Below, piece by piece: positions 1-35,766 of a stretch of 64,000 nucleotides of DNA. The position numbers were made by a program, and so were the translations under genes. The DNA comes from Escherichia coli (GTDB taxonomy: Bacteria; Pseudomonadota; Gammaproteobacteria; Enterobacterales; Enterobacteriaceae), in the NCBI RefSeq assembly GCF_013122565.1, contig NZ_CP053258.1. The stretch is one strand, 5' to 3'. The first letter of the stretch is position 1. Each line of letters begins with the position of its first letter. The notes beneath the pieces were generated by a model. The model saw only the letters and a list, made by a program, of their open reading frames with translations, did not search any database and had not been told where the DNA came from.

Positions 1-11
1 CCTCAGAGAAT

Positions 12-1617: not shown

Positions 1618-2427
1618 ATGAATGATTCACTCAAGGCGCAATGCGTTGCCGAGTTTTTGGGCACTGGACTGTTCCTCTTTTTTGGCATTGGTTGTTTGTG
1701 CGCCCTGAAAGTTGCCGGGGCAAGTCTGGGACTGTGGGAAATTTGTATCATTTGGGGGTTAGGGATTTCGCTTGCTGTTTACCTTACGGCAGGTATTTCC
1801 GGCGCTCATCTTAACCCGGCTGTTACCATTGCTCTGTGGCTGTTTGCCTCTTTCCCAGCCCGTAAAGTGCTGCCATTTTGTGTGGCGCAATTAGCGGGTG
1901 CCTTTGGTGGTGCGGTTCTGGCATATTCTCTATACAGCAATTTGTTTATCGATTTTGAATCTGCTCACAATATGGTGCGTGGTAGTGCAGAAAGTTTACA
2001 ACTCGCCAGTATCTTCAGTACTTATCCGGCAGCGGCGATTAATGTATGGCAAGCTGCGTTGGTCGAAGTGGTCATAACGTCCATGTTAATGGGGTTGATT
2101 ATGGCGTTGACCGATGACGGTAATGGCGTACCCAAAGGACCGCTTGCGCCTTTACTTATTGGTATTCTGGTTGCTGTTATTGGTGCTTCTACCGGACCAT
2201 TAACCGGTTTTGCCATGAATCCAGCGCGTGATTTTGGACCTAAGATTTTCACCTGGCTTGCGGGGTGGGGGGAAATTGCGATGACTGGTGGACGCAATAT
2301 TCCTTATTTCATTGTACCCATTATTGCACCGATCATTGGGGCATGTGTTGGTGCGGCGATTTATCGCTATCTCATTGCAAAGAATTTACCTGTCAATAGT
2401 GTAACGCCTAAAGAAATTAGCGAATAA
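1618..2427 (+). CDS. pduF: Propanediol diffusion facilitator (aquaglyceroporin/MIP family)
   Basis: ORF with ATG at 1618 preceded by aaagaagg RBS; MIP-family hallmarks (two NPA motifs: HLNPAVT and NPARD); the ORF track starts at a TTG at 1579. Confidence 0.85.
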   Translation: MNDSLKAQCVAEFLGTGLFLFFGIGCLCALKVAGASLGLWEICIIWGLGISLAVYLTAGISGAHLNPAVTIALWLFASFPARKVLPFCVAQLAGAFGGAVLAYSLYSNLFIDFESAHNMVRGSAESLQLASIFSTYPAAAINVWQAALVEVVITSMLMGLIMALTDDGNGVPKGPLAPLLIGILVAVIGASTGPLTGFAMNPARDFGPKIFTWLAGWGEIAMTGGRNIPYFIVPIIAPIIGACVGAAIYRYLIAKNLPVNSVTPKEISE

Positions 2428-2629
2428 CGAAATACTCTGGCAGTTATAAACGTTTATTTTTTTACTGTTTGTGATCTGCTTTCCGAACTTATTAAAAAGT
2501 CTCCCGCTTCACGGAGGCTTTTGTTATTGTCCTTTGTGCTTCTCGTCAGTAAATCATCAGGGATGATGTGAAGATTAAATGTAAAACAATTGTTTTGCTA
2601 TAACAATAAATTAACTGGGAGGTTTTATC

Positions 2630-3544
2630 ATGATTTCTGCGGCGACACTTAATTCAGAACTCATTAATAAAATCGCGCAGGATTTTGCGCAGGCGACCAG
2701 CCTTGCGGTTGTCGTGGTCAATATTCACGGCGATGAAATTTCCGAGCTGTTTAACTTCACTCCATTTTGTCAGATGATGCGGCAACACCCTCAGCTAAGC
2801 ACTCGATGTCGCATGAGTGATCGTTGTGGGGGCCTGGAAGCCTCTAAGTCCGATCAGCCTTGTATTTATCGCTGTCATGCCGGATTAACCGATTTCTCTA
2901 TTCCTCTGGTAATCGCCGGACATTTAGTTGGTTTTGTATTGTGCGGGCAAGTTCGTCTGCGTAATGATGATGTCGATTTGGTTGATATTCTGAATGTCGA
3001 TGATTGCTGGCAGGCAGATCCCGAATTACTTAATGAATTCCGCAAAGTCCCTGAGATGGATTACTCAAGAGTTATGGCCTCTGCTGATTTGTTGAAGTTG
3101 ATTGTGGAAAATTGCCTCAAAAAACAACTCAATTTTGTGGTTATTAAAGAAAACAAATCTCAGTCAGATTCGGTGCGCCAGACTCGTGCGCCTAATCCCC
3201 ACGACAATAAAATGAAAAAAGCTTTACGCTATATTGATGCACATTTATCAGACGATTTGCGTCTGGAGGATGTCGCCTCACATGTTTACCTAAGCCCTTA
3301 TTATTTCAGTAAGTTATTTAAGAAATACCATGGAATCGGGTTTAATGCGTGGGTAAACCAACAACGGATGGCCAGCGCTCGTGAGTTACTGTGCCATAGC
3401 GACTGGAGCATCGCCAGCATTGCGCGTAATTTAGGTTTTTCCCAAACCAGTTATTTTTGCAAAGTTTTCCGTCAGACTTATCAGGTTACGCCGCAGGTGT
3501 ATCGGCAGCAAGTGAATGAAAATGCGGCGATGGAAATGGTATAG
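2630..3544 (+). CDS. pocR: AraC-family transcriptional activator of pdu/cob regulon
   Basis: 304-aa ORF with C-terminal AraC-type HTH; position between pduF and the cob leader matches the Salmonella pocR arrangement. Confidence 0.85.
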   Translation: MISAATLNSELINKIAQDFAQATSLAVVVVNIHGDEISELFNFTPFCQMMRQHPQLSTRCRMSDRCGGLEASKSDQPCIYRCHAGLTDFSIPLVIAGHLVGFVLCGQVRLRNDDVDLVDILNVDDCWQADPELLNEFRKVPEMDYSRVMASADLLKLIVENCLKKQLNFVVIKENKSQSDSVRQTRAPNPHDNKMKKALRYIDAHLSDDLRLEDVASHVYLSPYYFSKLFKKYHGIGFNAWVNQQRMASARELLCHSDWSIASIARNLGFSQTSYFCKVFRQTYQVTPQVYRQQVNENAAMEMV

Positions 3545-3649
3545 AGTAAATGCCCCAAAAAAAGAGGACGGTTTAAATAAACTCTGGAATGAATAATTAA
3601 CGTTATTTACCTGTTATGGGAAAAGTAAAATCAGCTCATAACATACGCT

Positions 3650-3860
3650 GACAGGTGTGGCACATTTGTGCCTGGGAAGAGGGTGAAAATCCCTCGCAGC
3701 CCCCGCTGCTGTAATGCTGACAAACCCGAAAATGCCACTGATCGCGAGATTGGGAAGGTCGGGAGAGGATGACGCTAAGCCAGAAGACCAGTCTGTCAGT
3801 CAATACCAACAACTTCGGTGGGAAGTGGGTTGCCCGGAAGCGTTCGGTAGAGTACAGGCG
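3650..3860 (+). promoter_or_regulatory. Cobalamin (B12) riboswitch, cob-operon leader type
   Basis: Conserved elements read directly: cctgggaaga, ggtgaaaatccc, gcagcccccgctgctgtaa, aatgccactg, and a B12-box-like aagccagaagaccagtc at about 3776-3795; boundaries approximate. Confidence 0.7.
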
Positions 3861-4028
3861 CGTCTTTATACCCCTACCACCCTGAAAGGATCAGGGTATG
3901 GCGGCATCATTTAGTTCTTTCATCGCAGTGCCGACAGGCACCAGGGATGCATTCAAGGTGTGGCAATATTGTTTCATGGCTTATCAACCAGAGCGCCATT
4001 ACAGGAAATTAAGTGGAGGGCGAGAGGC

Positions 4029-4466
4029 ATGAAAACGATAAAACCCGAATCGATAGCTCTTTTTTGCCTCTTATCTGGAGATGTGGATCTGGCGAAACAT
4101 CTGGCGGAAATATTGCCAATAACCTGTTTTGTTGGTGAGGACTGGCAGCAAGATTTCCAGCCTCTTAACGGTGGGCCTGTGCAATCGTTATCAGATGCGT
4201 ATAGCGATTATTCAGTGCTGCTATTGATAGCAGCTGAAAGCGAGATATCCGTACCAGAATGGCTCGCTCATTCTGAGGGAACGACGGTAATTTTGATTGC
4301 AGAACACAATGCCCGTTTACTGACTGGTCCGGCTGGTGGGGCTGTAGCATTAATCCATTATCTGAATGAAATCTGTCATTCCAGAGAAACCGCTGTCAAT
4401 GACGCATTTTGTCATACGTTAACACGAGGAAGTCGGGCTATTCCACAATGCCATCTTCTTTCGTAA
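4029..4466 (+). CDS. Hypothetical protein, about 145 aa, downstream of the B12 riboswitch at the position where cbiA would lie
   Basis: ORF 3960..4466 in the track (GTG start); internal ATG at 4029 has a good RBS (ggaggg about 8 nt upstream); no family recognised. Confidence 0.45.
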   Translation: MKTIKPESIALFCLLSGDVDLAKHLAEILPITCFVGEDWQQDFQPLNGGPVQSLSDAYSDYSVLLLIAAESEISVPEWLAHSEGTTVILIAEHNARLLTGPAGGAVALIHYLNEICHSRETAVNDAFCHTLTRGSRAIPQCHLLS

Positions 4467-4599
4467 TGGATTGAGAATGCTGGATTTTTAATTATATTAC
4501 GCGCAGTATTAATCGTGTAAATGTTTTGCGGTCAGCAACGGTGGGGGATCCATTGTTCTGTTCAATGAATACCATCATACAATTGAATCAGGAGTCGGT

Positions 4600-7037: not shown

Positions 7038-7964
7038 ATGATGCGTCGTGTAAATATTCTTTGCTCATTTGCTCTGCTTTTTGCCAGCCATACTAGCCTG
7101 GCGGTAACCTATCCATTACCTCCAGAGGGTAGCCGTTTAGTGGGGCAGTCGCTTACTGTAACTGTTCCTGATCACAATACCCAGCCGCTGGAGACTTTTG
7201 CCGCACAATACGGGCAAGGGTTAAGTAACATGCTTGAAGCGAACCCGGGCGCTGATGTTTTTTTGCCGAAGTCTGGCTCGCAACTCACCATTCCGCAGCA
7301 ACTGATTTTGCCCGCCACTGTTCGTAAAGGGATTGTGGTTAACGTCGCTGAGATGCGTCTTTATTACTACCCGCCAGACAGTAATACTGTGGAAGTCTTT
7401 CCTATTGGTATCGGCCAGGCTGGGCGAGAAACCCCGCGTAACTGGGTGACTACCGTTGAACGTAAACAAGAAGCACCAACCTGGACGCCAACGCCGAACA
7501 CTCGGCGCGAATATGCGAAACGAGGGGAGAGTTTGCCCGCATTTGTTCCTGCGGGGCCCGATAATCCCATGGGGCTGTACGCGATTTATATTGGCAGGTT
7601 GTATGCCATCCATGGTACCAATGCCAATTTTGGTATTGGACTTCGGGTAAGTCAGGGCTGTATTCGTCTGCGCAATGACGATATCAAGTATCTGTTTGAT
7701 AATGTTCCTGTAGGTACTCGTGTGCAAATTATCGACCAGCCAGTAAAATACACCACTGAACCAGATGGCTCGAACTGGCTGGAAGTTCATGAGCCGCTGT
7801 CGCGCAATCGTGCAGAATATGAGTCTGACCGAAAAGTGCCATTGCCTGTAACCCCATCTTTGCGGGCGTTTATCAACGGGCAAGAAGTTGATGTGAATCG
7901 CGCAAATGCTGCGTTGCAACGACGATCGGGAATGCCTGTGAATATCAACCGTAACGGATTTTGA
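7038..7964 (+). CDS. ldtA: L,D-transpeptidase (YkuD domain)
   Basis: 308 aa with signal peptide and catalytic-region motif [20 protein letters not shown]; synteny next to cobT as for erfK/ldtA. Confidence 0.9.
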
Positions 7965-8125
7965 CATTCAAAACGTCTGGTTTTTCGGTCTGAGTAAGCA
8001 TTACGTCATGCAGAACAGGTTGTTTCGAATCATACAAATCATAATTTTCTTCTCATATGCGCATCTCTTATGAGCATAATCGTTATACTCTTCTGATTTA
8101 TACATGTTTGCTGATGACATGATCA

Positions 8126-9103
8126 ATGGAAAAGAGAATGACGAAACAGAAAAAAAACAGCCGCTGGCAGGGTTACGATCCTCGCTACATATACTCGCTC
8201 GTGGTCAGACGTTATTTTGCGGATATGAAAACCAAGATTGAGATTGCAGAGGAGCTTGGCGTTTCCCGCTTTAAAGTTGCCAGATTGATCGATGAGGCGA
8301 TCGAACAGGATTACGTGAGGTTTATCTTCCCTAAGCAGCAAGCGATGGATGAAGAAATCGCCAATAATCTACGGAAAAAATTTCATCTGGAAGATGCAAT
8401 TGTTCTTTCAGTTGCTGAATCCTGGACGACGCAAGAAGAACTCAATCACAAATTGGGTGAAGTCACCGCTGAATATCTTATGCAATCTCTTCATGAAGGT
8501 ATGAAAGTGGGGATCGCCTGGGGACGTGTATTATCAAGCACGGTCAGTAAGTTGAGCAAGTTGCCTCCTTTAGACGTTGTGCAGTTATCTGGCGTACATC
8601 CGGGGATAGAGTTTAGTCAAGGGCCAATAGATCTTATTCATAAGATCGCTGCCATTTCGCAGGGAAAAGCGCACCCAATGTACGTGCCGATGTGGGTCGA
8701 TGACGAAGAGCTTGCTGCCAGACTGGCAGGTGATCCTGCGGTATTAGATACACAGCAATATTACTCACAGTTGGATGTGGTTATCACCGGGATAGGTGAC
8801 TGGAAATCAGGTTCTTCAAGCTTGTATAAAATATTTCCGGATACCTGGTGCGAAGCTTTGTTTCAACAAGATATCGCTGCGGATGTGTGTATCTCGTTGG
8901 TCAACAGGGAAGGGAAGATTCTTCATAGTCCTATTGAACGTCTGGGATTTGGCATTTCGACGGATCAACTACAAAAAGCCAAAAAAGTGATTGGTGTCGC
9001 TGGAGGAGAAGAAAAATATGAAGGCATTCTTGCTTCGCTGAAATCCGGACTTTTGAATGTCTTAATTACTGATTTTGATACGGCCATTAAACTTCTGGAT
9101 TAA
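8126..9103 (+). CDS. SorC/DeoR-family sugar-binding transcriptional regulator
   Basis: 325 aa; N-terminal HTH (IEIAEELGVSRFKVARLI) followed by a sugar-binding-like domain; true start may be 8138 (MTKQKK). Confidence 0.75.
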   Translation: MEKRMTKQKKNSRWQGYDPRYIYSLVVRRYFADMKTKIEIAEELGVSRFKVARLIDEAIEQDYVRFIFPKQQAMDEEIANNLRKKFHLEDAIVLSVAESWTTQEELNHKLGEVTAEYLMQSLHEGMKVGIAWGRVLSSTVSKLSKLPPLDVVQLSGVHPGIEFSQGPIDLIHKIAAISQGKAHPMYVPMWVDDEELAARLAGDPAVLDTQQYYSQLDVVITGIGDWKSGSSSLYKIFPDTWCEALFQQDIAADVCISLVNREGKILHSPIERLGFGISTDQLQKAKKVIGVAGGEEKYEGILASLKSGLLNVLITDFDTAIKLLD

Positions 9104-9154
9104 TAGCCATATCAGTGAAGAAAGGGCAGTACCGCTGATTCTGCCCTTTTAATT

Positions 9155-9613
9155 TCAGGATGCTGCGAGCGTATCCTCTACATATTTAGCCACGTGCGTT
9201 GCAGGTAAATTGCGGCAAGTCTCAACAAAGGCGTTATCCTGAAACAGTGTGAATAAACGACGCAATATCGACATATGTTGATCACTGGTGGCAAATGCCA
9301 GGTTAAACATAATGCTACAATCAACTGTTAAATCAGCATCTTCCATTTGCCCGAAAGTGACATCATTGGCGAAACGAACAATACTGATACTGTTTACATT
9401 TACCAGCGTGTAATCGGCATGGGGAATGGCGATACCCTGACCGTTTGCCATCATTAGTCCTGTCGGATAGCTTTTTTCACGTTCCAGGCAGGCGTCAATG
9501 TATTCTGCAGTGATGTAGCCTTTTTCCAATAATTGCGTACCGGCAAAGGTGATCGCAGTTTGATAGTCACTGATGCTGTTATCAACATCATTCACCAGAA
9601 TTTCAAGTTTCAT
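9155..9613 (-). CDS. PTS EIIA component (fructose/mannitol/galactitol type, EIIA-2)
   Basis: 152 aa with phospho-His region GQGIAIPHADY; last gene of a minus-strand PTS operon. Confidence 0.8.
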   Translation of the reverse strand: MKLEILVNDVDNSISDYQTAITFAGTQLLEKGYITAEYIDACLEREKSYPTGLMMANGQGIAIPHADYTLVNVNSISIVRFANDVTFGQMEDADLTVDCSIMFNLAFATSDQHMSILRRLFTLFQDNAFVETCRNLPATHVAKYVEDTLAAS

Positions 9614-9623
9614 TGCACACCTG

Positions 9624-9908
9624 TTATTTCAACATCTCTTCTTTAACTGCAGCGAAAATCTCATCTTCGCCCAGACCTGTCAGTAATCCAGCGCCAACGA
9701 TGACACGAGTAGTAATGGCCGGGTTATCGAGTTTGGTCGATGAAACCACCAGGTCATAGCTGTTGAAGGTATCGCTGGTGCATGCCATTAACGAAGATTT
9801 ATCGACTTGCGCTTCAATTTTCTCTTCTTTCAGGAAGTCCTGCAGTACAGAGACCATGATGGAAGATGAGGCAATTCCGTTTCCGCAAACTACTAAGATT
9901 TTTTTCAT
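9624..9908 (-). CDS. PTS EIIB component (galactitol/ascorbate-type)
   Basis: 94 aa, MKKILVVCGNGIASSS with the phospho-Cys motif. Confidence 0.8.
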   Translation of the reverse strand: MKKILVVCGNGIASSSIMVSVLQDFLKEEKIEAQVDKSSLMACTSDTFNSYDLVVSSTKLDNPAITTRVIVGAGLLTGLGEDEIFAAVKEEMLK

Positions 9909-9931
9909 TTGATTATTCCTCTGTAAAAGAT

Positions 9932-11302
9932 TTAAAGCGCTTTTTCCAAATCCGTTTCAATCTGGCGACGTGATTTTTGTTTAATTAAGTATCCAATAGA
10001 TAACAAAAGGATACCTGCCATCAAATAGCCAATGATTCCAACATGGCTCAGGGCGGCAAACAGACCAGTAAATGGATTCGCTGACGGGTTAAGTGAAGAG
10101 TACATTACGCTGGCATCCGGGTTTGTACCAAATTTCTGGAAGACTTCGTTGGTAGCCGGTGCCATCCACGACGCAATATACAGACCACCACCGAACAAAA
10201 TGATCGAGGTCACCCAGGTGCGAATAATGTTGCCATTAAAAACAGGTACCATGCAGGCAATAAAAAACACAAACTGAGAGAGGTCACCCAGTGGCATAAC
10301 GCGGTTGCCGGGCAAGATCACGGCGAGGATCACAATGACCGGGATCAGTAATAATGCAGGGGCGATAACTGATGGATGACCCACAATCAGAGCAGTGTCC
10401 ATACCAACAGTGATTTGACGATCCGGGAACCGTTTGACCAGTTTTTTGCGTGCTACGTTGGAAAGCGGAACAAGTCCTTCCATCATGATAGAGGTCATAC
10501 GTGGTAACAGAAGCATGACCGCAGCCAGATACATCCCTAACTGTAGGCTGGCGATTATGGTGTGGTATGGGGATTTCCAGCCATAACCACAAAAGCCCAA
10601 CAAAATACCAATAATAAAACCAACCATAGTTGGATCGCCGAGAATGCCAAACCGTTTTTGAATAGTTTCGGCGGTCACATTCAGATTACGGAAGCCTGGG
10701 ATGCGATCATAAATCCAGTTGAATGGATAAGCGAAAAGTAAGTAGGTATTGGCAACCGGGTGAGAGATCGCAACACCTTTTGGCAGGTTAAAGAATTTTT
10801 CGTTATTTTTAGCACCAAGATCGGCAGCGATCAGCGCCCAGACATGGAATAGCGCGGCGGTCAATGCGCCATACAGGAAACTACCAGAATAGACGCCAAC
10901 AATTGCCCCCATTGACGCATTTTGATGAAGGTTGAAAACATCAACGTTAACACAGTCAGTCAGGCGGGCGACCAGCATTGCAATATTTACCGCAACACAG
11001 AGGGGAATAATGATAGCGCCCATGCTGGAGCCAAATCCCATAACCGCAGTCGCTGCGCCACCAACATCGATGGCACTGAGCGAGGAACCTGTTGCTTCTG
11101 CTAATCCGGTGACTGCCGGTTGCATTTTTTCCAGCATCAGTTTGATGGTCATGGTTAGCGCAATGAAACCAATGCCTACTTTGATGGCAGACGAGATACA
11201 TTCAGAAAGAGGACGGCCAAGTATCTTCATCAGTACCAGGAAGATGACCGGGATAAATATAAAATTTCCCAGATCGTTTATAAATTGCGTGATCAGTTCC
11301 AT
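9932..11302 (-). CDS. PTS EIIC permease, galactitol (GatC) family
   Basis: 456-aa polytopic membrane protein between IIB and the isomerase gene. Confidence 0.8.
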   Translation of the reverse strand: MELITQFINDLGNFIFIPVIFLVLMKILGRPLSECISSAIKVGIGFIALTMTIKLMLEKMQPAVTGLAEATGSSLSAIDVGGAATAVMGFGSSMGAIIIPLCVAVNIAMLVARLTDCVNVDVFNLHQNASMGAIVGVYSGSFLYGALTAALFHVWALIAADLGAKNNEKFFNLPKGVAISHPVANTYLLFAYPFNWIYDRIPGFRNLNVTAETIQKRFGILGDPTMVGFIIGILLGFCGYGWKSPYHTIIASLQLGMYLAAVMLLLPRMTSIMMEGLVPLSNVARKKLVKRFPDRQITVGMDTALIVGHPSVIAPALLLIPVIVILAVILPGNRVMPLGDLSQFVFFIACMVPVFNGNIIRTWVTSIILFGGGLYIASWMAPATNEVFQKFGTNPDASVMYSSLNPSANPFTGLFAALSHVGIIGYLMAGILLLSIGYLIKQKSRRQIETDLEKAL

Positions 11303-11305
11303 ACA

Positions 11306-11842
11306 TTAACCCTCAGATTTTTCATCATCTGGTCGGAAACCCATATTCCAGCGTACATCAGCGGGCTTAACCAGCAATGCATTATCGTTACGTTCAGCTT
11401 CTAGTAAGTTCTTTTTAGAATTTTCTCTGGCGGTGGTGAAGTCGAATGGGTTATCCAACCATGCATCGACAATCATTTTGCTGTATTCGAGATCGTTGAC
11501 CCGGCAACCCAGTCCAATAACTTGTGCGTTATTGCTGAGTCGCGCCCGCTTTGCGGAGTAGGGGTTAGTAACCGCAACGGCTCTTATGCCCCAGTGTTTG
11601 TTGATCTGACAAGTAAAGCCAATGCCAGTCCCACAAATGTAAATTCCCAGACGGCACTCATCGCGTTGAATAATGCCTGCCATTTCGTCGGCCAGACGCG
11701 CGAAGTTATTGACACCTTGTTCCTTACATGTGACGGGATCGTACACGATCTCCATGTTTTTCTCTTCTATGAGGTATTTTTTTATCTCCTCTTTACGTGC
11801 AAAACCTACATCATCGCTTGCGATAGCAATCTTTGTTTTCAT
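11306..11842 (-). CDS. RpiB/LacA/LacB-family sugar-phosphate isomerase with C-terminal extension
   Basis: 178 aa, MKTKIAIASDDVGF...GIYICGTGIGF, typical of ribose-5-P isomerase B / allose-6-P / galactose-6-P isomerases; first gene of the operon. Confidence 0.75.
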   Translation of the reverse strand: MKTKIAIASDDVGFARKEEIKKYLIEEKNMEIVYDPVTCKEQGVNNFARLADEMAGIIQRDECRLGIYICGTGIGFTCQINKHWGIRAVAVTNPYSAKRARLSNNAQVIGLGCRVNDLEYSKMIVDAWLDNPFDFTTARENSKKNLLEAERNDNALLVKPADVRWNMGFRPDDEKSEG

Positions 11843-12190
11843 TTCATTTTGCCTGTCGTTAAGTAACTAAAGCCAAGTATGCTGTTGGTAAATATTGGTT
11901 GTCAATTGAGATCTAAATCACAAAATTTATAACTGATTGATTTTTAATGAATTAAAAACCAATAAAAACAAATAAAAAATAAATTAAGCCAATTAAAACA
12001 AAGTAGGCTTGCACAAGCACTTTGCAATTAATAATAAAAACACATTAAATATCAATCATATATATGAATTGCCAAACATTGTCTTTATTGGGCTTATTTG
12101 TACTTTCTACAGTTAGTGTTTGTTTTTGTTTGCATCATCTGTGCTATGCTTGGCGTTTTCTAAGATGGGCAATAGATTTCAGGAGGAAGG

Positions 12191-12946
12191 ATGTATCTGG
12201 TTGATGAAAGGCGAAAGTTAATACTTGAAGACTTAATGTCGGCAGGTACGGTCTATGTCAGTGATCTTGCACGAAAGTATGAAGTAACGTATGAGACCAT
12301 CAGGAAAGATTTGACCCATCTTGAACAAAAAGGGCTGCTGATCAAAAGCCATGGTGGGGCGACTTTAAAGCAAAGGGCCATAGAGCATCCCTTTCAGGTC
12401 AGGGAAAAAGAAAATAACTCTTATAAGAAGGCGATAGCTCGTAAAGCGCTTGATTTCATTCCGCCTAATAGTTCGATGATTATCGGTACGGGCAGTACCA
12501 CTTTTGAGCTGGCTAACCTGTTATGTATGAAGTCTGGGTTTAAAATCTTCACAGATTCGCTCCCCGTTGCCAGTGTGTTGATTGAATCTGACAATCAGGT
12601 TTTTCTCTTTGGCGGCGAACTGCGTAGAAAGAGTTCCTCAGTGTTTGGGGGGTGGGCGGTATCTATGATCAACGATATACATGTTGATCTCTGTTTCATT
12701 GGAACCGACGGCTTTAGTAACATGACTGGTCCATCGACGCCTTCTTCTTCTGATGCGTTTTTGGATCGCACGATAATTTCGCACTCAGACAAAAAATATA
12801 TCCTCGGTGATTACACCAAGTTTGAGCGCAGCAGTTTGTTTAAGATCTGCGACTGGTCGGAGATCACCGCCCTTATTACCAACGATCATGCCGACAAAGA
12901 GGGGATTGCCGAAGTCGCAAAATACACGTCAGTAATAACCTGTTAG
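12191..12946 (+). CDS. DeoR/GlpR-family transcriptional regulator
   Basis: 251 aa; N-terminal HTH (VYVSDLARKYEVTYETIRKDL) plus DeoR-type sugar-phosphate-binding C-domain; divergent from the first PTS operon. Confidence 0.8.
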   Translation: MYLVDERRKLILEDLMSAGTVYVSDLARKYEVTYETIRKDLTHLEQKGLLIKSHGGATLKQRAIEHPFQVREKENNSYKKAIARKALDFIPPNSSMIIGTGSTTFELANLLCMKSGFKIFTDSLPVASVLIESDNQVFLFGGELRRKSSSVFGGWAVSMINDIHVDLCFIGTDGFSNMTGPSTPSSSDAFLDRTIISHSDKKYILGDYTKFERSSLFKICDWSEITALITNDHADKEGIAEVAKYTSVITC

Positions 12947-13123
12947 AACTCCCTACAACACGCCTTCTCCCTTCGAATCAGCTTTGCCAAATGTAATCAT
13001 TTCCAAATTATCAAGTGAGCATCCATGGTGATGCTTGCTTAGCGCCCTTTATTGAATGCATCCTCTGCATATTGCCAGTTGCACCTCATTTTTTGCGAAG
13101 AAATCATTTTTTGAATCACGGTT

Positions 13124-13263
13124 TGCTCATATGAGCATAAATGCTGTCGCCATTATGTGCTTTTTTGTGATCTGGATTTAATTTCTCAGATCTCGTCATT
13201 TATCCACAGGATCGTTGTGCTATAACTGCTCATATGAATATTGTTCAATGCTCATGTGAGCAT
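13124..13263. promoter_or_regulatory. Candidate operator: palindromic tgctcatatgagca-type sites upstream of the second PTS operon
   Basis: Perfect 14-bp palindrome tgctcatatgagca at 13124-13137; related half-site tgctcatatgaa at 13227-13238 and near-palindrome tgctcatgtgagca at 13250-13263. Confidence 0.45.
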
Positions 13264-13284
13264 TGTGGGGTGAGGGGGAAGGAT

Positions 13285-13728
13285 ATGATATCGATCAGTG
13301 TTGCCGATGGTGCGGGACTACAGAACTACGATGCCGTGCTTGAACATATTTATAACACGCATCGTGAAACGAATACGGTGAAAGAGAGCTGGCTCAATGC
13401 TATGCGTAAACGCGAAGCGGAATATCCGACAGGAATAGAACTGGAAGGTTATTCTATCGCTATACCACACTGTGATAGTGAACATGCGAATCAACCGGCT
13501 ATTTATATCATCCGTCTGCCAGACGCAATACCTGTGAACAGGGCTGATGAAGATGGAATATTGTGGGTCAGACTCGTCGTTAATCTTATTGTTACGGATC
13601 CTGCTGACCAGCTTCGATTGTTAAAGTCATTATTTAACCATCTCCAAAATGAAGAATTTTACCAAAACTTACTGACACTTCCCGTCGATGATGCAAAAGC
13701 ACTTTTTGTGTCCAAAATAATCCAATAG
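13285..13728 (+). CDS. PTS EIIA component (EIIA-2 type)
   Basis: Phospho-His region YSIAIPHCD; start placed at the ATG at 13285 with a gggggaagga RBS; the track ORF starts at 13234 inside the palindromes. Confidence 0.75.
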   Translation: MISISVADGAGLQNYDAVLEHIYNTHRETNTVKESWLNAMRKREAEYPTGIELEGYSIAIPHCDSEHANQPAIYIIRLPDAIPVNRADEDGILWVRLVVNLIVTDPADQLRLLKSLFNHLQNEEFYQNLLTLPVDDAKALFVSKIIQ

Positions 13729-13746
13729 TAAAAACTGGAGTTTATT

Positions 13747-14040
13747 ATGATTAATATTCTTGTTGCTTGTGGTAGCGGTGTCGCTACATCTACGCTTGCT
13801 GCTGATGAAGTGAAGTCAGTATGTGCTGAATATGGTATTACGGCATTTAAAATCAACAAATGCAGTATGGCTGAACTTTCTTCTGAGATGGCTCATGCAG
13901 ATATTGTACTCACAACTAATAACTATAAAGGTGATATTGGGAAACCACATATGAGTGTTGCAGGTTTTGTAACGGGTATTAATGAAGGAGCATTACGCAA
14001 GAAATTAGGAGAGTTATTAACTGAATTAGCAAATAGCTAA
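13747..14040 (+). CDS. PTS EIIB component (galactitol-type)
   Basis: 97 aa, MINILVACGSGVATST phospho-Cys motif. Confidence 0.8.
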   Translation: MINILVACGSGVATSTLAADEVKSVCAEYGITAFKINKCSMAELSSEMAHADIVLTTNNYKGDIGKPHMSVAGFVTGINEGALRKKLGELLTELANS

Positions 14041-14060
14041 ACCTGACAGGAATAATAAAA

Positions 14061-15314
14061 ATGGAAATGTTGAAAAATTTAATGGAAACCATCACCGGAA
14101 TGGGGGCAACTGCAATACTGCCGCTGGTGATATTTATTTTAGGTCTGGTGTTCAGAATGAAACCAGGTGCCGCGATCAAGTCGGGCATCACAGTCGGTAT
14201 TGGTTTTATTGGTTTAGGTTTGGTTGTTGGTTTATTAAATAGTTCATTACAGCCAGCTATTGAGTATTACTCAAAAGTAGGTAGTGGTTTTACGGTTGCA
14301 GATATTGGTTGGCCAGCAGTCGGTGCTGCTGCATGGGTAGCACCTTTTGCCGCATTAGTGATACCAGTTGGCATCGTACTTAACCTGATACTGGTGCGCC
14401 TGAAATTAACCAAAACGTTAAATGTTGATATCTGGAACTATATGCATTTTTTAGTTCCGGGCGCTCTGGCATATTTTGTGTTCGACAGTTTTATCATCGG
14501 CTTCTCTGTCGCGGTGGCTTTGAGTATTGCGGCTCTGTTTATTGGCGATTTGATTGCGCCCAGATGGCAAAAATATTATGGACTCGAGGGAACAACCTGT
14601 ACCACGATGATTCATATCGGCTGGACTCTACCGTTCGCCTGGGTAGTAAATAAAATCATTGATTACATCCCAGGGTTAAATAAGTTAGATGTTGATTTAA
14701 ACAGCGTGCAAAAACGCCTGGGTGTCTTTGGTGAACCTGCAATTATCGGTGTTATCGTTGGCGCATTACTCGGAGTTTTAACGAAACAGGCAATTACCAC
14801 AATTGTTCCCATGGCGATGGGGGTTGCTGGCGTAATGGTATTATTGCCTAAAGTGGTCGGTGTGCTGATGGAAGGTCTTAACCCGATTGGGAAAAGTGCT
14901 AAAGAAATCATGCAAAAACAGATGGGTAAAGATGCAGAATTAAACATCGGTATGGATTGTGCACTGGCGTTGGGGGATCCGGCTACGGTCACCGTGACAG
15001 TAATTACCATTCCTTTAACCATGCTATGTGCTCTGGTATTACCTGATATTAAGATCTTCCCAATCGGCGTATTGATGTCAATTATTTATATGACCACCAT
15101 GACCGTAATGGCGAGCAACGGTAACGTGATTCGTTCGATTATCTCGACCTTGTTATTCTGCGTTGTAGTGATGTATTTAGGCGGTTATGTCGCACCAGGG
15201 GCAACGCAATTTTTAGCTGGAGCCGGTGTAGGCTTGCAAGGACAAGGTACTGATTTTGTATTAACCGGCCCGTGGGAAATTTTAACCTATTGGTTGAGTA
15301 CCGTATTACATTGA
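14061..15314 (+). CDS. PTS EIIC permease, galactitol (GatC) family
   Basis: 417-aa polytopic membrane protein following IIA and IIB. Confidence 0.8.
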   Translation: MEMLKNLMETITGMGATAILPLVIFILGLVFRMKPGAAIKSGITVGIGFIGLGLVVGLLNSSLQPAIEYYSKVGSGFTVADIGWPAVGAAAWVAPFAALVIPVGIVLNLILVRLKLTKTLNVDIWNYMHFLVPGALAYFVFDSFIIGFSVAVALSIAALFIGDLIAPRWQKYYGLEGTTCTTMIHIGWTLPFAWVVNKIIDYIPGLNKLDVDLNSVQKRLGVFGEPAIIGVIVGALLGVLTKQAITTIVPMAMGVAGVMVLLPKVVGVLMEGLNPIGKSAKEIMQKQMGKDAELNIGMDCALALGDPATVTVTVITIPLTMLCALVLPDIKIFPIGVLMSIIYMTTMTVMASNGNVIRSIISTLLFCVVVMYLGGYVAPGATQFLAGAGVGLQGQGTDFVLTGPWEILTYWLSTVLH

Positions 15315-15336
15315 TTTAATAATCTGGAGTTTTAAC

Positions 15337-15981
15337 ATGGCAAAAATATTACCTTCTATATTTGGCGCGGATATTTTACGCCTGAAAGATGAAATTCATT
15401 TTCTGGAAGAGGAACAAACCGAAATATTGCACGTTGATTTAATGGATGGCACTTATGTCAGTAATATTGCCTTTGGCCCAAATCAAATAGCAGCAATGAA
15501 AAAAGCCAGTTCGATGATCTTTGATGTGCACATGATGCTGGCAAATCCTGAGCGACATATTGATGATGTAATCAATACCGGGGCGGAGATGATTTCTGTA
15601 CATTATGAATCGACGCCACATGTACATTATATTATTCAAAAAATCAAAAAAGCGGGTCGCAAAGCAGGTGTTGTGCTTAATCCTGGGACACCTGAATCTG
15701 TCATCGAGTATTTATTAGATGATATTGATTATATATTGTTAATGACAATTAACCCAGGGCAACCAGGCCAGACATTTATTCATAAAAGTCTGGAGAAAAT
15801 CCGTAATACCAAAAAAATGATATCTGGCAGAGATATTCAAATTGAAGTGGATGGTGGCGTTAATCTTGATAATGTAAAACAAGTTAAAGAAGCAGGGGCT
15901 GACCTTATTGTTGTTGGTGGTGCCTTATTTAACAAACAGCCTCGTGAAAGTTATCAGGCATTGAAAATCGCTATTCAGTGA
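15337..15981 (+). CDS. Ribulose-phosphate 3-epimerase family protein (Rpe/AlsE-like ketose-phosphate 3-epimerase)
   Basis: 214 aa with the HVDLMDG signature and TIM-barrel epimerase layout. Confidence 0.8.
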   Translation: MAKILPSIFGADILRLKDEIHFLEEEQTEILHVDLMDGTYVSNIAFGPNQIAAMKKASSMIFDVHMMLANPERHIDDVINTGAEMISVHYESTPHVHYIIQKIKKAGRKAGVVLNPGTPESVIEYLLDDIDYILLMTINPGQPGQTFIHKSLEKIRNTKKMISGRDIQIEVDGGVNLDNVKQVKEAGADLIVVGGALFNKQPRESYQALKIAIQ

Positions 15982-16078
15982 TCACAATCTAAAAATTTCA
16001 CATCCAGTTAAGTGAGGTTTTCGATTTCATATCGGGAGGAAAACCTCAGCTAAAAAATGTCTTTAATGGAGAAAAGTA

Positions 16079-16831
16079 ATGAGTAATTTTGCAGGTAAAG
16101 TGGTTTTAGTTACCGGAGGTGCTCACGGTATTGGCAAAGGGATAGCTAAACAATTTGCTGATCGTGGTGCACATACTGTTATTGTTGACTATAACGAAGA
16201 GAACGGCAAGGCCACTGCAGCAGAGTTAACTTTTGGCGATGTTAAATCGCTGTTTGTTAAAACAGATGTCTCTGATCCACAGGCATTAGTGGATGTACGG
16301 GAAAAAGTATTTGCTACCTTTGGTCGTATTGATGTGTTGATATTAAATGCCGGTGTGGCATTTGCCAATAAAGTTAACAATATTTCTTTTGAGGAATGGA
16401 ATAAGACTATCGCAATTAATTTATCGGGATTATTTAATACCGTTAAGGCGTTTTATGATGATTTCCTGACAAATAAGGGATCTATTGTTTATATCTCATC
16501 GGGATCAGCACTTTCGGGGACTGGAGGCGGTGTGAGTTATCCAGCCAGTAAAGCGGGAGGCGAAGGGTTGATTCGCGGTCTGGCGAAGGAGTTAGGACCA
16601 AAAGGCGTCAATGTTAATGCGATTGCTCCCCGCTTAATAGACACCGGAGAGATGATGCGGGTCAACTATCCGACACAAGCCGATTTAGACGCTGTCCTGG
16701 AAAAAATACCCGTCCGTCGTCTGGGAACTATCGATGATGTGGCTAACCTGGCAATATTTTTGGCAGATAAAGATAACTCTTATATTCAGGGACAAACCAT
16801 TTTAATGGATGGTGGCCGGACTATTGCTTAA
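16079..16831 (+). CDS. Short-chain dehydrogenase/reductase (SDR) family oxidoreductase
   Basis: 250 aa with Rossmann motif TGGAHGIGKG and a YxxxK active-site region (YPASK). Confidence 0.8.
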   Translation: MSNFAGKVVLVTGGAHGIGKGIAKQFADRGAHTVIVDYNEENGKATAAELTFGDVKSLFVKTDVSDPQALVDVREKVFATFGRIDVLILNAGVAFANKVNNISFEEWNKTIAINLSGLFNTVKAFYDDFLTNKGSIVYISSGSALSGTGGGVSYPASKAGGEGLIRGLAKELGPKGVNVNAIAPRLIDTGEMMRVNYPTQADLDAVLEKIPVRRLGTIDDVANLAIFLADKDNSYIQGQTILMDGGRTIA

Positions 16832-16846
16832 AAAGGGAGAGAAAAA

Positions 16847-17407
16847 ATGAGTGTTCAGGAAAATACTATTAATATTCTGCATGAATTAGAGAGTAATGCG
16901 CTGAAGATTGACGATGCTCAGGCTTCACAGTTCATTTCGCAAATCAGAAATGCCCGGCATATTTTTTTGCAGGGAGCTGGTCGCAGTGGCATTGCTATTC
17001 GCGCTTTTGCTAATCGCTTGCTGCATTTAGGTTTTTCAGTAAGCGTTGTGGGAGAAATATCATCACCGCATACTCAACCTGGAGATCTATTAATTATTGG
17101 GTCAGGCAGTGGTGAAACTACCAGTTTGAAAAGTCTGGCACAAAAAGCAGTTGATAGCGGAGTAAACGTCGCTCTGGTAACTATGAAAGCTGATTCAACG
17201 ATCGGTAAATTAGCTCAATCTGTGTTGGTACTACCAGGAAGTGTGAAAGACGATAACAATCGTGTTGCAGGCGCTTTCGCGCAACCAATGGGCTCAGCTT
17301 TTGAGCAACTCTGCTTTATTACTTATGATGCAATTGTTCTGGAGTTGATGTCTGAACTGGGTGAAAGCAGTGCCACAATGTTTACCCGACACGCTGATCT
17401 GGAATGA
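16847..17407 (+). CDS. SIS-domain sugar-phosphate isomerase (6-phospho-3-hexuloisomerase-like)
   Basis: 186 aa; single SIS domain (FLQGAGRSGIA); size and layout resemble HxlB-type PHI. Confidence 0.7.
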   Translation: MSVQENTINILHELESNALKIDDAQASQFISQIRNARHIFLQGAGRSGIAIRAFANRLLHLGFSVSVVGEISSPHTQPGDLLIIGSGSGETTSLKSLAQKAVDSGVNVALVTMKADSTIGKLAQSVLVLPGSVKDDNNRVAGAFAQPMGSAFEQLCFITYDAIVLELMSELGESSATMFTRHADLE

Positions 17408-17431
17408 CTAAAAAGTTGGTAATTAGAAAGC

Positions 17432-17461
17432 AAAAAGCCTGCTAGAAAGCAGGCTTTTTTG
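17432..17461. terminator. Bidirectional rho-independent terminator between the island and asnV
   Basis: Hairpin agcctgc-tagaaa-gcaggct flanked by an A-run upstream and a T-run downstream. Confidence 0.6.
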
Positions 17462-17465
17462 AATT

Positions 17466-17541
17466 TGGCTCCTCTGACTGGACTCGAACCAGTGACATAC
17501 GGATTAACAGTCCGCCGTTCTACCGACTGAACTACAGAGGA
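17466..17541 (-). tRNA. asnV: tRNA-Asn (GUU)
   Basis: 76-nt reverse complement of the E. coli tRNA-Asn sequence; position between ldtA side and nac. Confidence 0.95.
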
Positions 17542-19873: not shown

Positions 19874-19949
19874 TGGCTCCTCTGACTGGACTCGAACCAG
19901 TGACATACGGATTAACAGTCCGCCGTTCTACCGACTGAACTACAGAGGA
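19874..19949 (-). tRNA. asnU: tRNA-Asn (GUU)
   Basis: Identical 76-nt tRNA-Asn sequence (reverse complement). Confidence 0.95.
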
Positions 19950-21697: not shown

Positions 21698-21773
21698 TCC
21701 TCTGTAGTTCAGTCGGTAGAACGGCGGACTGTTAATCCGTATGTCACTGGTTCGAGTCCAGTCAGAGGAGCCA
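21698..21773 (+). tRNA. asnW: tRNA-Asn (GUU)
   Basis: TCCTCTGTAGTTCAGTCGGTAGAACGGCGGACTGTTAATCCG...GAGCCA read directly on the plus strand. Confidence 0.95.
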
Positions 21774-22223: not shown

Positions 22224-22940
22224 TTAGAGATTTGCGACGTTATGATAAACTTTTTGTACATCGTCGTCATCTTCAAGGGCATCAACAAGCCCTTCAAAGA
22301 TTTCTAAATCTTCTGGGGAAAGCTCAACTTCTGATTGAGCAATCATTTCTAATTCTGTTGTTGAGAACTCAGTGATTCCAGCTGCTTTTAGAGCCGCGAT
22401 TCCTTTATGAAGGTCAGTAGGTTCAGTATAAATAACAATGTTACCTTCTTCTTCAGTCACATCACGAACATCAACTTCAGCTTCAAGTAAAATTTCAAAA
22501 ATATGGTCAGGGTCTGTTCCTTTAAATACAATCACACCCGTATTGTCAAACATATAGCTGACAGAACCTGCCGCTCCGATATTGCCGCCTTTTTTATTGA
22601 AAATTGTGCGAACGTTAGCAATCGTACGGTTAACATTTGAAGTCAATGTCTCGGCGATAATCATTGAGCCATTAGGACCAAAGCCTTCATAACGGCCCTG
22701 CACGAACGTTTCATCTCCGCCGCCTTTGGCTTTATCAATTGCTTTATCAATAACGTGTTTTGGAACTTGTGCCTGCTTTGCACGTTCAATAACGAATTTT
22801 AAAGATGTGTTTAATTCTGGATCGGGTTCACCTTGTTTAGCAGCAGCATAGATTTCTACACCGAATTTTGCATAAATTTTAGACGTTGCACCGTCTTTAG
22901 CCGTTTTTTTAGCAACAATATTGGCCCATTTACGTCCCAC
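22224..22940 (-). CDS. yeeN: YebC/PmpR-family probable transcriptional regulator
   Basis: 238 aa, [42 protein letters not shown]. Confidence 0.9.

Positions 22941-27783: not shown

Positions 27784-35766
<7,983 letters not shown>

Follow-up and report, generated by a model that had tools for sequence, protein, structure and literature searches.

Gene content of the island

The window, a stretch of 64,000 nucleotides of Escherichia coli DNA (contig NZ_CP053258.1), carries an accessory island with two phosphotransferase system (PTS) gene sets. Its features are as follows, in window positions.

7941-17414, no strand: accessory island, 9,474 bp, from the ldtA 3' end to the asnV terminator
8138-9103, plus: SorC/DeoR(Bsu)-type sugar-binding transcriptional regulator (sorC), PF04198 Sugar-bind domain; ORF opens at 8126
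9155-9613, minus: PTS IIA of cassette 1 (IIA1), 152 aa; PF00359, E = 1.4e-25; AIPH phospho-histidine motif visible in the alignment
9624-9908, minus: PTS IIB of cassette 1 (IIB1), 94 aa; PF02302; N-terminal VVCGNGIASS loop with Cys8
9932-11302, minus: PTS IIC of cassette 1 (IIC1), 456 aa, Gat family; PF03611, E = 9e-64
11306-11842, minus: RpiB/LacAB-family sugar-phosphate isomerase, 178 aa; PF02502; opens the cassette-1 operon
11843-12190, no strand: divergent promoter region of the rpiB operon and deoR, AT-rich (GC 0.29)
12191-12946, plus: DeoR/GlpR-family repressor (deoR), PF08220 and PF00455; predicted regulator of cassette 1
12947-13284, plus: promoter/operator region of the IIA2 operon, holding the palindromes GCTCATATGAGC and GCTCATGTGAGC
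13285-13728, plus: PTS IIA of the outer operon (IIA2), 147 aa; PF00359
13747-14040, plus: PTS IIB of the outer operon (IIB2), 97 aa; PF02302; LVACGSGVATS loop in the alignment
14061-15314, plus: PTS IIC of the outer operon (IIC2), 417 aa, Gat family; PF03611, E = 8e-69
15337-15981, plus: ribulose-phosphate 3-epimerase family enzyme (Rpe), 214 aa; PF00834
16079-16831, plus: SDR-family NAD(P) oxidoreductase, 250 aa; PF13561 and PF00106
16847-17407, plus: SIS-domain 6-phospho-3-hexuloisomerase (HxlB)-like isomerase, 186 aa
17432-17541, minus: tRNA-Asn (asnV), right border of the island; tRNA at 17466-17541, terminator hairpin at 17432-17459

Homology with island-less E. coli stops at window position 7940, the left edge, and a junction alignment with K-12 W3110 showed that 37 bp of K-12 sequence are swapped for the island. 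At the right, the island lies beyond the asnV terminator and not inside the tRNA gene. Its content of 12 genes is metabolic only; no integrase or other mobility gene was found within it, and the 3' end of the tRNA is not repeated directly at its borders.

Two Gat-type PTS sets and their associated enzymes

The original prediction of two full Gat-type IIA/IIB/IIC sets was borne out by matches to PF00359, PF02302 and PF03611 at 9155-11302 (minus strand) and 13285-15314 (plus strand). The IIC proteins were correctly described as diverged, being 29% identical, and the IIA and IIB pairs are each 28% identical. The claim that the IIC N-termini differ did not hold, as the alignment spans residues 6/9 to 392/389 and the 39-aa difference in length corresponds to the C-terminal tail of IIC1. 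Against TIGR00827, IIC1 scored 350 bits and IIC2 322 bits, both below the cut-off of 542. IIC1 is 96% identical to its Salmonella homologue and only 32% identical to K-12 GatC; IIC2 is 90-94% identical to its counterparts in other Enterobacterales, 85% to that of Lactovum and only 34% to GatC. IIA2 fell narrowly short of the GatA model PRK09665 (136 bits; cut-off 139), and its start is most likely at 13285 (147 aa) rather than at 13234, as judged from the RefSeq start and a AGGGGGAAGGA ribosome-binding site.

Three of the enzymes could be placed by curated models and solved structures. The RpiB-like protein exceeded the TIGR00689 cut-off (99.7 against 88.3 bits), with E. coli RpiB (2vvr) as its closest solved structure. 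Rpe passed TIGR01163 (235 bits; cut-off 212.6) and stayed below the cut-off of the AlsE model (178 against 271), the closest structure being S. pyogenes Rpe (2fli). The HxlB-like isomerase scored 209.6 bits against TIGR03127 (cut-off 160), and its closest solved structure is B. subtilis YckF/HxlB (1m3s). This HxlB-type isomerase occurs here without HxlA, which we count against the explanation preferred below. For the SDR protein, none of the NCBIfam models reached its curated cut-off. Homologues in Firmicutes whose genes are linked to Gat-type PTS genes share 79-92% identity with it, and it is a predicted sugar- or polyol-phosphate dehydrogenase. The SorC-type regulator matched NCBIfam models weakly. 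The divergent promoter region at 11843-12190 contains A/T-tract repeats (D1) and promoter-like hexamers on both strands.

Predicted pairing of the regulators with the PTS sets

Upstream of IIA2, GCTCATATGAGC is found at 13125-13136 and GCTCATGTGAGC at 13250-13261, and sorC is preceded by weaker, related sites (8052-8077). The window contains six matches to this palindrome motif (0.54 expected), all of them in the IIA2 or sorC upstream regions. A scan of 14 enterobacterial loci with sorC showed one to three copies in each, and two or three in 12 of them, within about 300 bp upstream of IIA2; the scanned Firmicute and Orbus loci, all lacking sorC, contain no copy. In the short-form loci described below, sorC stands directly upstream of IIA2-IIB2-IIC2-rpe-SDR-SIS and deoR is missing. 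In turn, deoR is divergent from rpiB-IIC1-IIB1(-IIA1) in Orbus, L093, E. faecalis, the Vibrio-like contig L092 and a Staphylococcus plasmid, and its GC3 of 0.49 is like that of cassette 1. We infer that the SorC-type regulator controls the IIA2 operon and not the PTS set that adjoins it, and that the DeoR repressor probably controls cassette 1; the predicted operator-regulator pairing is one of co-occurrence only.

Since sorC belongs to operon 2 and deoR to PTS set 1, a DeoR|RpiB-IIC-IIB-IIA unit appears nested inside a SorC + IIA-IIB-IIC-Rpe-SDR-HxlB unit. The inner unit is inverted between sorC and the outer operators, and therefore each regulator adjoins the PTS genes of the other unit. The original operon limits, with sorC in the first module and deoR in the second, were thus wrong by locus comparison and operators, and the presumed side-by-side join at about 12 kb is replaced by a nested insertion at about 9104-12946.

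Distribution and ancestry of the two units

A long form with the same gene order and orientation was found at other chromosomal sites in Citrobacter, K. oxytoca, Enterobacter, Entomohabitans, Providencia and Salmonella. It has 12 genes as here, or 13 in the two genera, Citrobacter and K. oxytoca only, that carry a second SIS gene between sorC and IIA1. In the long forms the two cassettes diverge in parallel (IIC1 92-96%, IIC2 91-93%). Compared with Salmonella, all 12 proteins of the window are 64-96% identical and the DNA 70-78%. The island adjoins asnV here and tRNA-Gly(ccc) in Enterobacter and, with an integrase, in Salmonella; neither ldtA nor nac was a neighbour at any other island locus examined. 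A short form, consisting of sorC and operon 2 only, is present in eight enterobacterial genera, including Pseudocitrobacter, Brenneria, Erwinia, Pantoea, Izhakiella, Rouxiella and UBA5654, and on the metagenomic contig L008. Cassette 1 occurs by itself, with its own deoR and SIS gene, in Orbus (Orbales) and in L093.

In neighbour-joining trees with bootstraps, the only trees built, the Enterobacterales IIC2 clade lies inside Lactovum/Streptococcus/Breznakia (bootstraps 99, 98 and 94%), and the gammaproteobacterial IIC1 clade falls among sequences of Firmicutes and Coriobacteriia, its Firmicute sister having 16% bootstrap. The nearest non-proteobacterial IIC2 proteins are those of Lactovum (85%) and Streptococcus (76-78%), and the nearest IIC1 proteins those of Enterococcus and S. 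suis (81-82%). The proposed phylogeny of each IIC thus placed IIC2 in Streptococcaceae-like Firmicutes with 98-99% bootstrap; together with the IIC1 clade and an island GC that is lower than that of the host in all enteric hosts examined, this agrees with the suggested low-GC donor ancestry. The idea of a composite island also stood, in the sense of two evolutionarily separate cassettes.

These results probably reflect a carbohydrate-utilisation island, pre-assembled and about 9.5 kb long, with two nested units of Firmicute descent, that spread as one block. Low-GC Gram-positive lineages would be the source of both units. The nested composite would have a single origin within Enterobacterales, where a complete cassette 1 was inserted with its own SIS gene, which would have been kept in Citrobacter and Klebsiella and lost here. 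The composite would afterwards have been transferred as one block, and the Escherichia copy may have been at asnV for so long that it has diverged at the pace of its flanks.

One joint transfer from a Firmicute in which the cassettes were already adjacent is a less probable but still credible account; short forms and lone cassettes would then be losses, and the nested order a rearrangement. The cassettes are indeed adjacent in E. faecalis, E. raffinosus, Enterococcus sp. CU9D, a Staphylococcus pseudoxylosus plasmid and contig L003, and in tandem in contig L092 (IIC2 90.6%, IIC1 89.4%). Moreover, in a tree of the seven outer-unit genes the long forms were not monophyletic (0/200 bootstraps) and the window copy grouped with the short form of UBA5654; a single insertion therefore requires that cassettes were later lost or that variants of the island recombined. 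However, the sample includes no Firmicute that is nearest in both cassettes (L003: IIC2 85%, IIC1 75%; Enterococcus CU9D: IIC1 82%, IIC2 69%). The Firmicute loci have PRD-type activators and lack sorC and its operator, cassette order and orientation differ in each lineage, and cassette 1 stands alone in Orbales.

Base composition and codon usage

The second operon had been described as markedly more AT-rich than the first. The direction was correct, but the total-GC gap is ordinary for the window. With the original module limits, total GC is 0.450 for module 1 (8126-11842) and 0.417 for module 2 (12191-17407), compared with 0.516 in the left core, 0.481 in the right core and 0.472 in the whole window; a gap of 0.033 or more separates 52% of neighbouring segments of equal size when the window is compared pair by pair. 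The GC3 of IIA1..rpiB plus deoR is 0.477, against 0.358 for IIA2..SIS (z = 6.0). Relative to nine flanking core genes (0.492), cassette 1 showed no difference (z = 0.8), in contrast to IIA2..SIS (z = 8.2). In codon usage, the first part lies at a distance of 0.105 from 27 core genes and the second at 0.166, with a maximum of 0.094 in size-matched random samples of core codons. Thus the proposed GC and codon-usage check left total GC within the spread of the window and separated the two parts by GC3 and codon usage.

That this difference carries no historical signal, and arises from gene-specific constraints, expression level or regional heterogeneity, seems improbable. Besides the ordinary total-GC gap, it would account for the low GC3 of rpe, IIB2 and SDR, which are the lowest in every enteric host with the IIC genes always higher, and a core gene can be low as well (yeeN, 0.27, against 0.49-0.52 for core genes). 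Nevertheless, the GC3 contrast and a codon-usage shift beyond the size-matched core samples argue against it, and the step falls on the independently defined cassette boundary, with deoR (0.49) grouping with cassette 1. The contrast also keeps its sign in all six other long forms, although in the window (+0.12) it is two to three times as large as in these (+0.04 to +0.07), an excess AT-richness peculiar to Escherichia that counts against the preferred explanation. The outer operon probably owes its lower GC3 to this mosaic history together with gene-specific bias, and the value is not evidence of separate recent acquisition.

Occurrence within E. coli

The complete island is present in 225 of 5,426 complete E. 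coli genomes, a patchy distribution (4%). The original prediction had the modules acquired separately, and it is very unlikely that this genome or a recent Escherichia ancestor gained them in separate events that met at an asnV hotspot. Although their GC3 values differ, the site adjoins a tRNA gene and the nearest Firmicute relatives of IIC1 and IIC2 are not the same, the identical nested arrangement recurs at other loci in six other genera and the two parts diverge in parallel. Within E. coli, 237 genomes have the one part, 226 the other and 225 both, and the genomes seen with a partial island resemble deletion remnants, such as 271 bp of sorC or deoR alone. Compared with another E. coli carrier, both parts are as diverged as the flanks (98.0-99.1% identity in the island, 98.4-98.6% in the flanks). 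A local tandem duplication followed by divergence can practically be dismissed as the source of both PTS sets: they belong to the same protein families within one neighbourhood, but they are as far from each other (28-29%) as from K-12 GatC, each has orthologues in other phyla at 74-96%, and their regulators, enzymes and gene order are unlike.

Predicted function and relation to known systems

In the pre-assembled island, the outer unit would comprise the SorC-type regulator, two to three putative GCTCAYRTGAGC operators and the operon IIA2-IIB2-IIC2-Rpe-SDR-HxlB-like isomerase. The inner unit would comprise the DeoR repressor divergent from RpiB-like isomerase-IIC1-IIB1-IIA1, inverted between sorC and the outer operators. 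The general EI/HPr chain would supply phosphate to each permease by way of its own IIA and IIB, and the two permeases would import and phosphorylate distinct polyols or rare sugars. The SDR protein, the C3-epimerase and the HxlB-type and RpiB-type isomerases may then convert the sugar phosphates to pentose-phosphate or fructose-6-phosphate intermediates, a scheme shown for pentitol PTS operons of the Gat type in Listeria and Bacillus methanolicus.

The galactitol PTS GatABC of E. coli K-12 (gatYZABCDR; Gat family, TC 4.A.5) shares with the island separate IIA (PF00359), IIB (PF02302) and IIC (PF03611) proteins and a DeoR-family repressor. In contrast to it, the island lacks a GatD-type Zn-dehydrogenase and a tagatose-bisphosphate aldolase, and carries Rpe, SDR, HxlB-like and RpiB-like enzymes instead. 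The sgc operon of K-12 (sgcRAQCBXE) encodes a cryptic, uncharacterised PTS of the Gat family. By description, not by sequence, it resembles the island in linking such a PTS to an Rpe paralogue, a homologue of ribulose-phosphate 3-epimerase, and to a regulator of the DeoR type, but it has one permease only and lacks SDR, HxlB-like and RpiB-like genes.

Listeria monocytogenes reportedly has Gat-type pentitol PTS operons with pentose-phosphate enzymes, namely PTS(Axl) lmo2665-2668 and the lmo0498-0508 operon, in work by Kentache et al. from 2016, which PMC6685057 cites. In such Gram-positive operons (Listeria, B. methanolicus), Gat IIA/IIB/IIC genes are co-transcribed with a polyol-phosphate dehydrogenase, Rpe and RpiB, as in the gene set of the island, and PRD activators are common to them and to the Firmicute relatives of the island. 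They are routinely mis-annotated as galactitol systems; the B. methanolicus PTS annotated as 'galactitol' is actually a D-arabitol PTS, atlABCD (PMC6685057). The dehydrogenase of the island, likened to theirs without sequence comparison, is an SDR and not a Zn-dependent MDR protein, and the enteric islands differ in carrying SorC- and DeoR-type repressors, two permeases and an HxlB-type isomerase.

Other E. coli islands are associated with tRNA-Asn genes, such as the HPI at asnT and the pks island at asnW. Like these, the present island lies at the asn tRNA cluster, is patchy and has a GC below the core; unlike them, it lacks an integrase and a tRNA 3' repeat, lies beyond the terminator, spans only 9.5 kb and is purely metabolic.

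The linkage of the two cassettes in other arrangements in Vibrio, Enterococcus and a Staphylococcus plasmid suggests that they work together. Our best guess is that the substrates are polyols or rare sugars. As the unit moves ready-made among enterics and traces to low-GC Gram-positives, it would be an ordinary, uncharacterised metabolic island and not a new kind of system.

Nested arrangement of the island

One genome per species was scanned with an IIC-2 profile and then searched by tblastn with all 12 island proteins, and extra loci were added by looking up individual homologues. In the genome scan, 12 Enterobacterales species had IIC-2 copies of 90-94% identity; the idea that IIC-2 has no enterobacterial relatives outside E. 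coli was rejected as an artefact of 90%-identity clustering in the first protein search. The island genes occur in the following arrangements.

Arrangements of the island genes in other genomes
Short form: sorC + IIA2-IIB2-IIC2-rpe-SDR-SIS; Pseudocitrobacter, Brenneria, Erwinia, Pantoea, Izhakiella, Rouxiella, UBA5654, and the metagenomic contig L008
Long form (the order of the window): sorC(+) IIA1 IIB1 IIC1 rpiB(-) deoR(+) IIA2..SIS(+); Citrobacter, K. oxytoca, Enterobacter wuhouensis, Entomohabitans, Providencia vermicola, and Salmonella enterica
Cassette 1 alone: deoR / rpiB-IIC1-IIB1-IIA1-SIS'; Orbus mooreae and contig L093
Tandem: sorC-operon 2, HAD phosphatase, complete cassette 1, integrase; Vibrio-like contig L092
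Tandem: cassette 1, PRD activator, operon 2; E. faecalis, E. raffinosus, Enterococcus sp. CU9D, and a Staphylococcus pseudoxylosus plasmid
Fused: one operon with a single IIA; contig L003

These arrangements indicate that the island of the window consists of cassette 1 (about 9104-12946) nested between sorC and the promoter of operon 2 (IIA2-IIB2-IIC2-rpe-SDR-SIS). The original prediction placed a module boundary near 12 kb, which has to be abandoned because, judged by the other genomes, it groups both regulators wrongly. These modules also form a longer array in Enterococcus faecalis GCA_038289225.1 (L090, 495-17365), where three Gat-family PTS clusters follow one another: PRD-IIA-IIC-IIB-YjbQ-Rpe-SIS, DeoR/RpiB-IIC-IIB-IIA-SIS, and PRD-IIA-IIB-IIC-Rpe-SDR-SIS.

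Limits and chromosomal setting

The window is an E. coli-type chromosome segment with the gene order pdu/pocR, cobUST, ldtA, island, asnV, nac, cbl, asnU, yeeO, asnW, and onward. Its core DNA is no more than about 98.3-98.6% identical to its best match among 5426 complete E. coli genomes, and hardly any core stretch reaches 99%, suggesting that it comes from a somewhat divergent lineage that is not closely represented among the complete genomes. Features of the setting are as follows.

1-4500: pduB, pduA, pduF, and pocR beside cobUST, covered to at least 80% in only 638 of the 5426 genomes and so a second variable block of the window
7941-17414: the island
17466-17541, 19874-19949, 21698-21773, 36080-36155, and 37147-37236: four tRNA-Asn(GTT) and one tRNA-Ser(CGA), all within 20 kb
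22224-22940 (-): yeeN (YebC/PmpR family)
27784-35841 (-): giant ORF of 2685 aa, presumably a YeeJ-type adhesin; the homologue found here in E. coli carries the annotation Ig-like domain-containing protein

Homology with island-less genomes such as K-12 stops on the left at 7940, 24 nt before the ldtA stop codon, and returns at about 17415, just past the last island gene. The right end falls outside the terminator of tRNA-Asn asnV, 51 nt away from the tRNA 3' end. The island is thus a 9,474-bp insert in place of 37 bp in K-12. Island DNA supplies the final 24 nt of ldtA, stop codon included (7941-7964), and the end of the gene differs in K-12 (311 aa against 308 aa), so the insertion swapped the C-terminal codons of a core gene. 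In the K-12 alignment the left junction resembles the end of hxlB at 15 of 19 positions, but this was discarded as an explanation of the empty site of K-12, which holds 37 unrelated bases. The promoter and terminator scans were relied on for the asnV terminator only; the promoter consensus scan did no better than on shuffled sequence (19 found vs 22.4 expected).

The asn tRNA cluster is a recognised island hotspot of E. coli. No integrase or transposase was found among the island genes, and no direct repeats or tRNA-derived att sites at its borders. The pair that marks a classical tRNA-integrated island, an integrase and a direct repeat from the tRNA 3' end, is therefore missing. The patchy distribution, atypical composition, and differing host locations are those of a genomic island, and the Salmonella and Vibrio-like copies of the genes adjoin integrases.

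Base composition and codon usage

The second module had been described by eye as markedly more AT-rich than the first and than the flanks. With the boundaries originally drawn, the direction was right (GC 0.450 in the first vs 0.417 in the second) and the size was not: the gap of 0.033 was equalled by 52% of equal-sized neighbouring segment pairs within the window. Total GC was 0.516 and 0.481 in the flanks, 0.472 in the whole window, and 0.424 in the island. Sliding windows of total GC were rejected as a means of separating the modules, as they could not split them from the background heterogeneity; only GC3 and codon usage did so. The contrast in GC3 was clear, and it became sharper with the corrected cassette boundaries.

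GC3 of the two units and the flanking core
IIA1-IIB1-IIC1-rpiB + deoR: 0.477; no difference from the 9 flanking core genes (z = 0.8)
IIA2..SIS operon: 0.358; z = 6.0 vs the inner set and z = 8.2 vs core
9 flanking core genes: 0.492; reference

The codon-usage distance to 27 core genes was 0.105 for the inner set and 0.166 for the outer operon, while random size-matched samples of core codons gave at most 0.094. The regional composition is itself heterogeneous: yeeN, conserved at its E. coli position, has a GC3 of 0.27, below every island gene except IIB-2. Low-GC patches occur at 22-23 kb, 26-28 kb, and 37-39 kb, close to tRNA genes of the asn cluster.

Every long form shows a GC3 contrast of this sign (+0.015 to +0.074; +0.04 to +0.07 outside the low-GC Providencia). 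In the window it is +0.12, an Escherichia-specific excess over the other long forms.

History in enterics and E. coli

The modules had been proposed to be acquired separately, which at this site is contradicted by several lines of evidence. First, the nested order is common to other genera and is old, since the window and the Salmonella copies have all 12 genes in common at 64-96% amino-acid identity and only 70-78% DNA identity. Second, the divergence of both parts is parallel across the long forms. Third, the two parts occur together in E. coli: at a coverage of at least 80%, one is present in 237 and the other in 226 genomes, and both are in 225, so that the island is carried by 225/5426 complete genomes (about 4%). 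Some match of any kind was seen in 267 genomes, and the partial matches look like deletion remnants. Finally, in a comparison with E. coli PapRG-06-5, identity is 98.0-99.1% for the island segments and 98.4-98.6% for the flanks, suggesting that both parts were already at asnV when these lineages began to diverge.

The site itself is not shared with other hosts. The Salmonella and Enterobacter copies lie at tRNA-Gly(ccc), with an integrase in Salmonella, and no other island locus outside the window's site had ldtA or nac as neighbours. Cassette 1's own SIS gene is kept between sorC and IIA1 in Citrobacter and K. oxytoca, and is lost in the window, Salmonella, Enterobacter, Entomohabitans, and Providencia. 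This pattern fits a cassette that was complete when it inserted and later lost its redundant isomerase. The locus is a clean example of a compositional step that marks an old junction between cassettes, carried along within the island, rather than recording how the host itself acquired the DNA, and GC steps taken as separate local acquisitions would mislead.

Origin across phyla

In neighbour-joining (NJ) trees with bootstrap (numpy implementation), the Enterobacterales IIC-2 clade (99%) was sister to Lactovum (Streptococcaceae) and contig L003 (98%), and this group was nested among Streptococcus and Breznakia (94%). The gammaproteobacterial IIC-1 clade (100%) lay inside a Firmicute and Coriobacteriia radiation, where no sister group gained clear support. 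Moreover, the GC of the island is below that of the flanks in every enteric host. Together, the IIC phylogenies and this GC deficit support a low-GC Gram-positive ancestry, more firmly for the outer operon, and the low-GC donor suggested originally was a correct guess as to the ultimate source. No sampled Firmicute is nearest for both cassettes, which would favour two inter-phylum crossings over one. However, the outer-unit tree does not unite the long forms in one clade, and losses or recombination must therefore have played a part as well.

IIC-2-type proteins of Rouxiella silvae (L026) and Glaesserella sp. (P0072) make up a second proteobacterial group, 61-62% identical to the window's protein. 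The pair (99% bootstrap) clusters among Bacillales, apart from the main enterobacterial clade, suggesting another independent inter-phylum transfer.

Two PTS sets of old subfamilies

As predicted, the island contains two complete Gat-type PTS sets. Both IICs match PF03611 (EIIC-GAT; E = 9e-64 and 8e-69), and each set has IIA (PF00359) and IIB (PF02302) as separate soluble proteins, as in the Gat family (TC 4.A.5). Both IIBs have a CG(N/S)G(I/V)A(S/T)S loop with a predicted phosphorylatable Cys8, and both IIAs an AIPH motif with the predicted phosphorylatable His. The divergence claimed for the IICs (456 vs 417 aa) is real at 29% identity, with IIA and IIB each 28% identical between the sets; the claimed difference in N-termini is not, the length gap being a C-terminal tail of IIC-1.

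Neither set belongs with the galactitol-specific GatABC, on model scores or on linked genes. Against TIGR00827 (cut-off 542) the IICs reach only 350 and 322 bits, against PRK09665 (cut-off 139) the IIAs reach only 81.6 and 136.1 bits, and the island has no GatD dehydrogenase or GatYZ tagatose-bisphosphate aldolase as in the K-12 gat locus. Since the island IICs are also only 32-34% identical to K-12 GatC, the sequences place IIC-1, IIC-2, and GatC as three old subfamilies, not recent duplicates. The labels 'PTS galactitol transporter' on the island genes are probably wrong.

Regulation

Proximity cannot assign the regulators to operons here, as each adjoins the genes of the other unit. Within the 64 kb, the palindrome GCTCAYRTGAGC is confined to 13125 and 13250 and, in weaker form, to 8052-8077 (6 motif matches vs 0.54 expected). 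It lies just upstream of IIA2 in every sorC-bearing enterobacterial locus, short or long form, in 1-3 copies (2 or 3 in 12/14 loci) with conserved spacing, and no copies were found in Firmicute or Orbus loci without sorC. We infer that it is a putative operator of the SorC-type regulator, and that DeoR would control the divergent rpiB operon, as in the stand-alone cassette. The rpiB-deoR intergenic region (GC 0.29) has, at 11951-12056, three copies of A/T-tract repeats of the AATAAAAACA type, which may mark a DeoR operator or a curved-DNA/H-NS target.

Proposed function and significance

Besides the transporters, the island codes for an RpiB-family isomerase, a Rpe-family 3-epimerase above the TIGR01163 (Rpe) cut-off, an SDR, and an HxlB-type SIS isomerase above its model cut-off (209.6 bits vs 160), with B. 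subtilis YckF as the nearest solved structure. The HxlA/HxlB pair of the RuMP pathway is incomplete, as no HxlA was found in the island (the Rpe-family protein scores 35 bits against the HxlA cut-off of 200). The SDR matched no NCBIfam model at curated cut-off, and searches of solved structures with the four enzymes returned generic families only, for the SDR FabG-like proteins without a clue to substrate.

By gene content, the SDR, Rpe, and RpiB beside the PTS resemble a Gat-type pentitol/polyol operon, in which a polyol-phosphate dehydrogenase and pentose-phosphate enzymes accompany the transporter. Gat-type pentitol PTS operons of Gram-positives with the same logic were reportedly described by Kentache et al. 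in 2016 (Listeria PTS-Axl). The accessory enzymes match the logic of such operons (Listeria PTS-Axl, B. methanolicus Atl), and on this likeness two polyols or rare sugars might be taken up by the PTS, and then be oxidised, epimerised, and isomerised to xylulose-5-phosphate, ribulose-5-phosphate, or fructose-6-phosphate. In Gram-positives, Gat-type PTS genes labelled 'galactitol' turned out to serve D-arabitol transport, in linkage with polyol-phosphate dehydrogenases and enzymes of the pentose-phosphate pathway (PMC6685057). Literature searches by site, enzymes, substrates, and RefSeq proteins found no description of the island or its substrates.

Repeated independent linkage and the loss of the duplicate SIS suggest that the two cassettes cooperate. 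It is possible, if rather doubtful, that they are not independent uptake systems but two arms of one catabolic pathway for a pair of related polyols or rare sugars, with the HxlB-type 3-hexuloisomerase acting outside formaldehyde fixation. Pointing this way, the same two IIC subfamilies are joined in at least four architectures (nested in Enterobacterales, tandem in the Vibrio-like contig, tandem in Enterococcus and the Staphylococcus plasmid, and fused in L003), the duplicate SIS of cassette 1 is lost in some nested copies including the window, and the linked SDR is unusually conserved (79-92% identity across phyla).

The island is an ordinary accessory metabolic island, already annotated generically by RefSeq and nothing new in kind, and the block also turns up sporadically in Salmonella, Klebsiella, Citrobacter, Enterobacter, and Providencia. 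It probably gives its carriers access to a niche of polyols or rare sugars that gut lactic acid bacteria use too, and the identities of its substrates could explain strain-level differences in gut colonisation.
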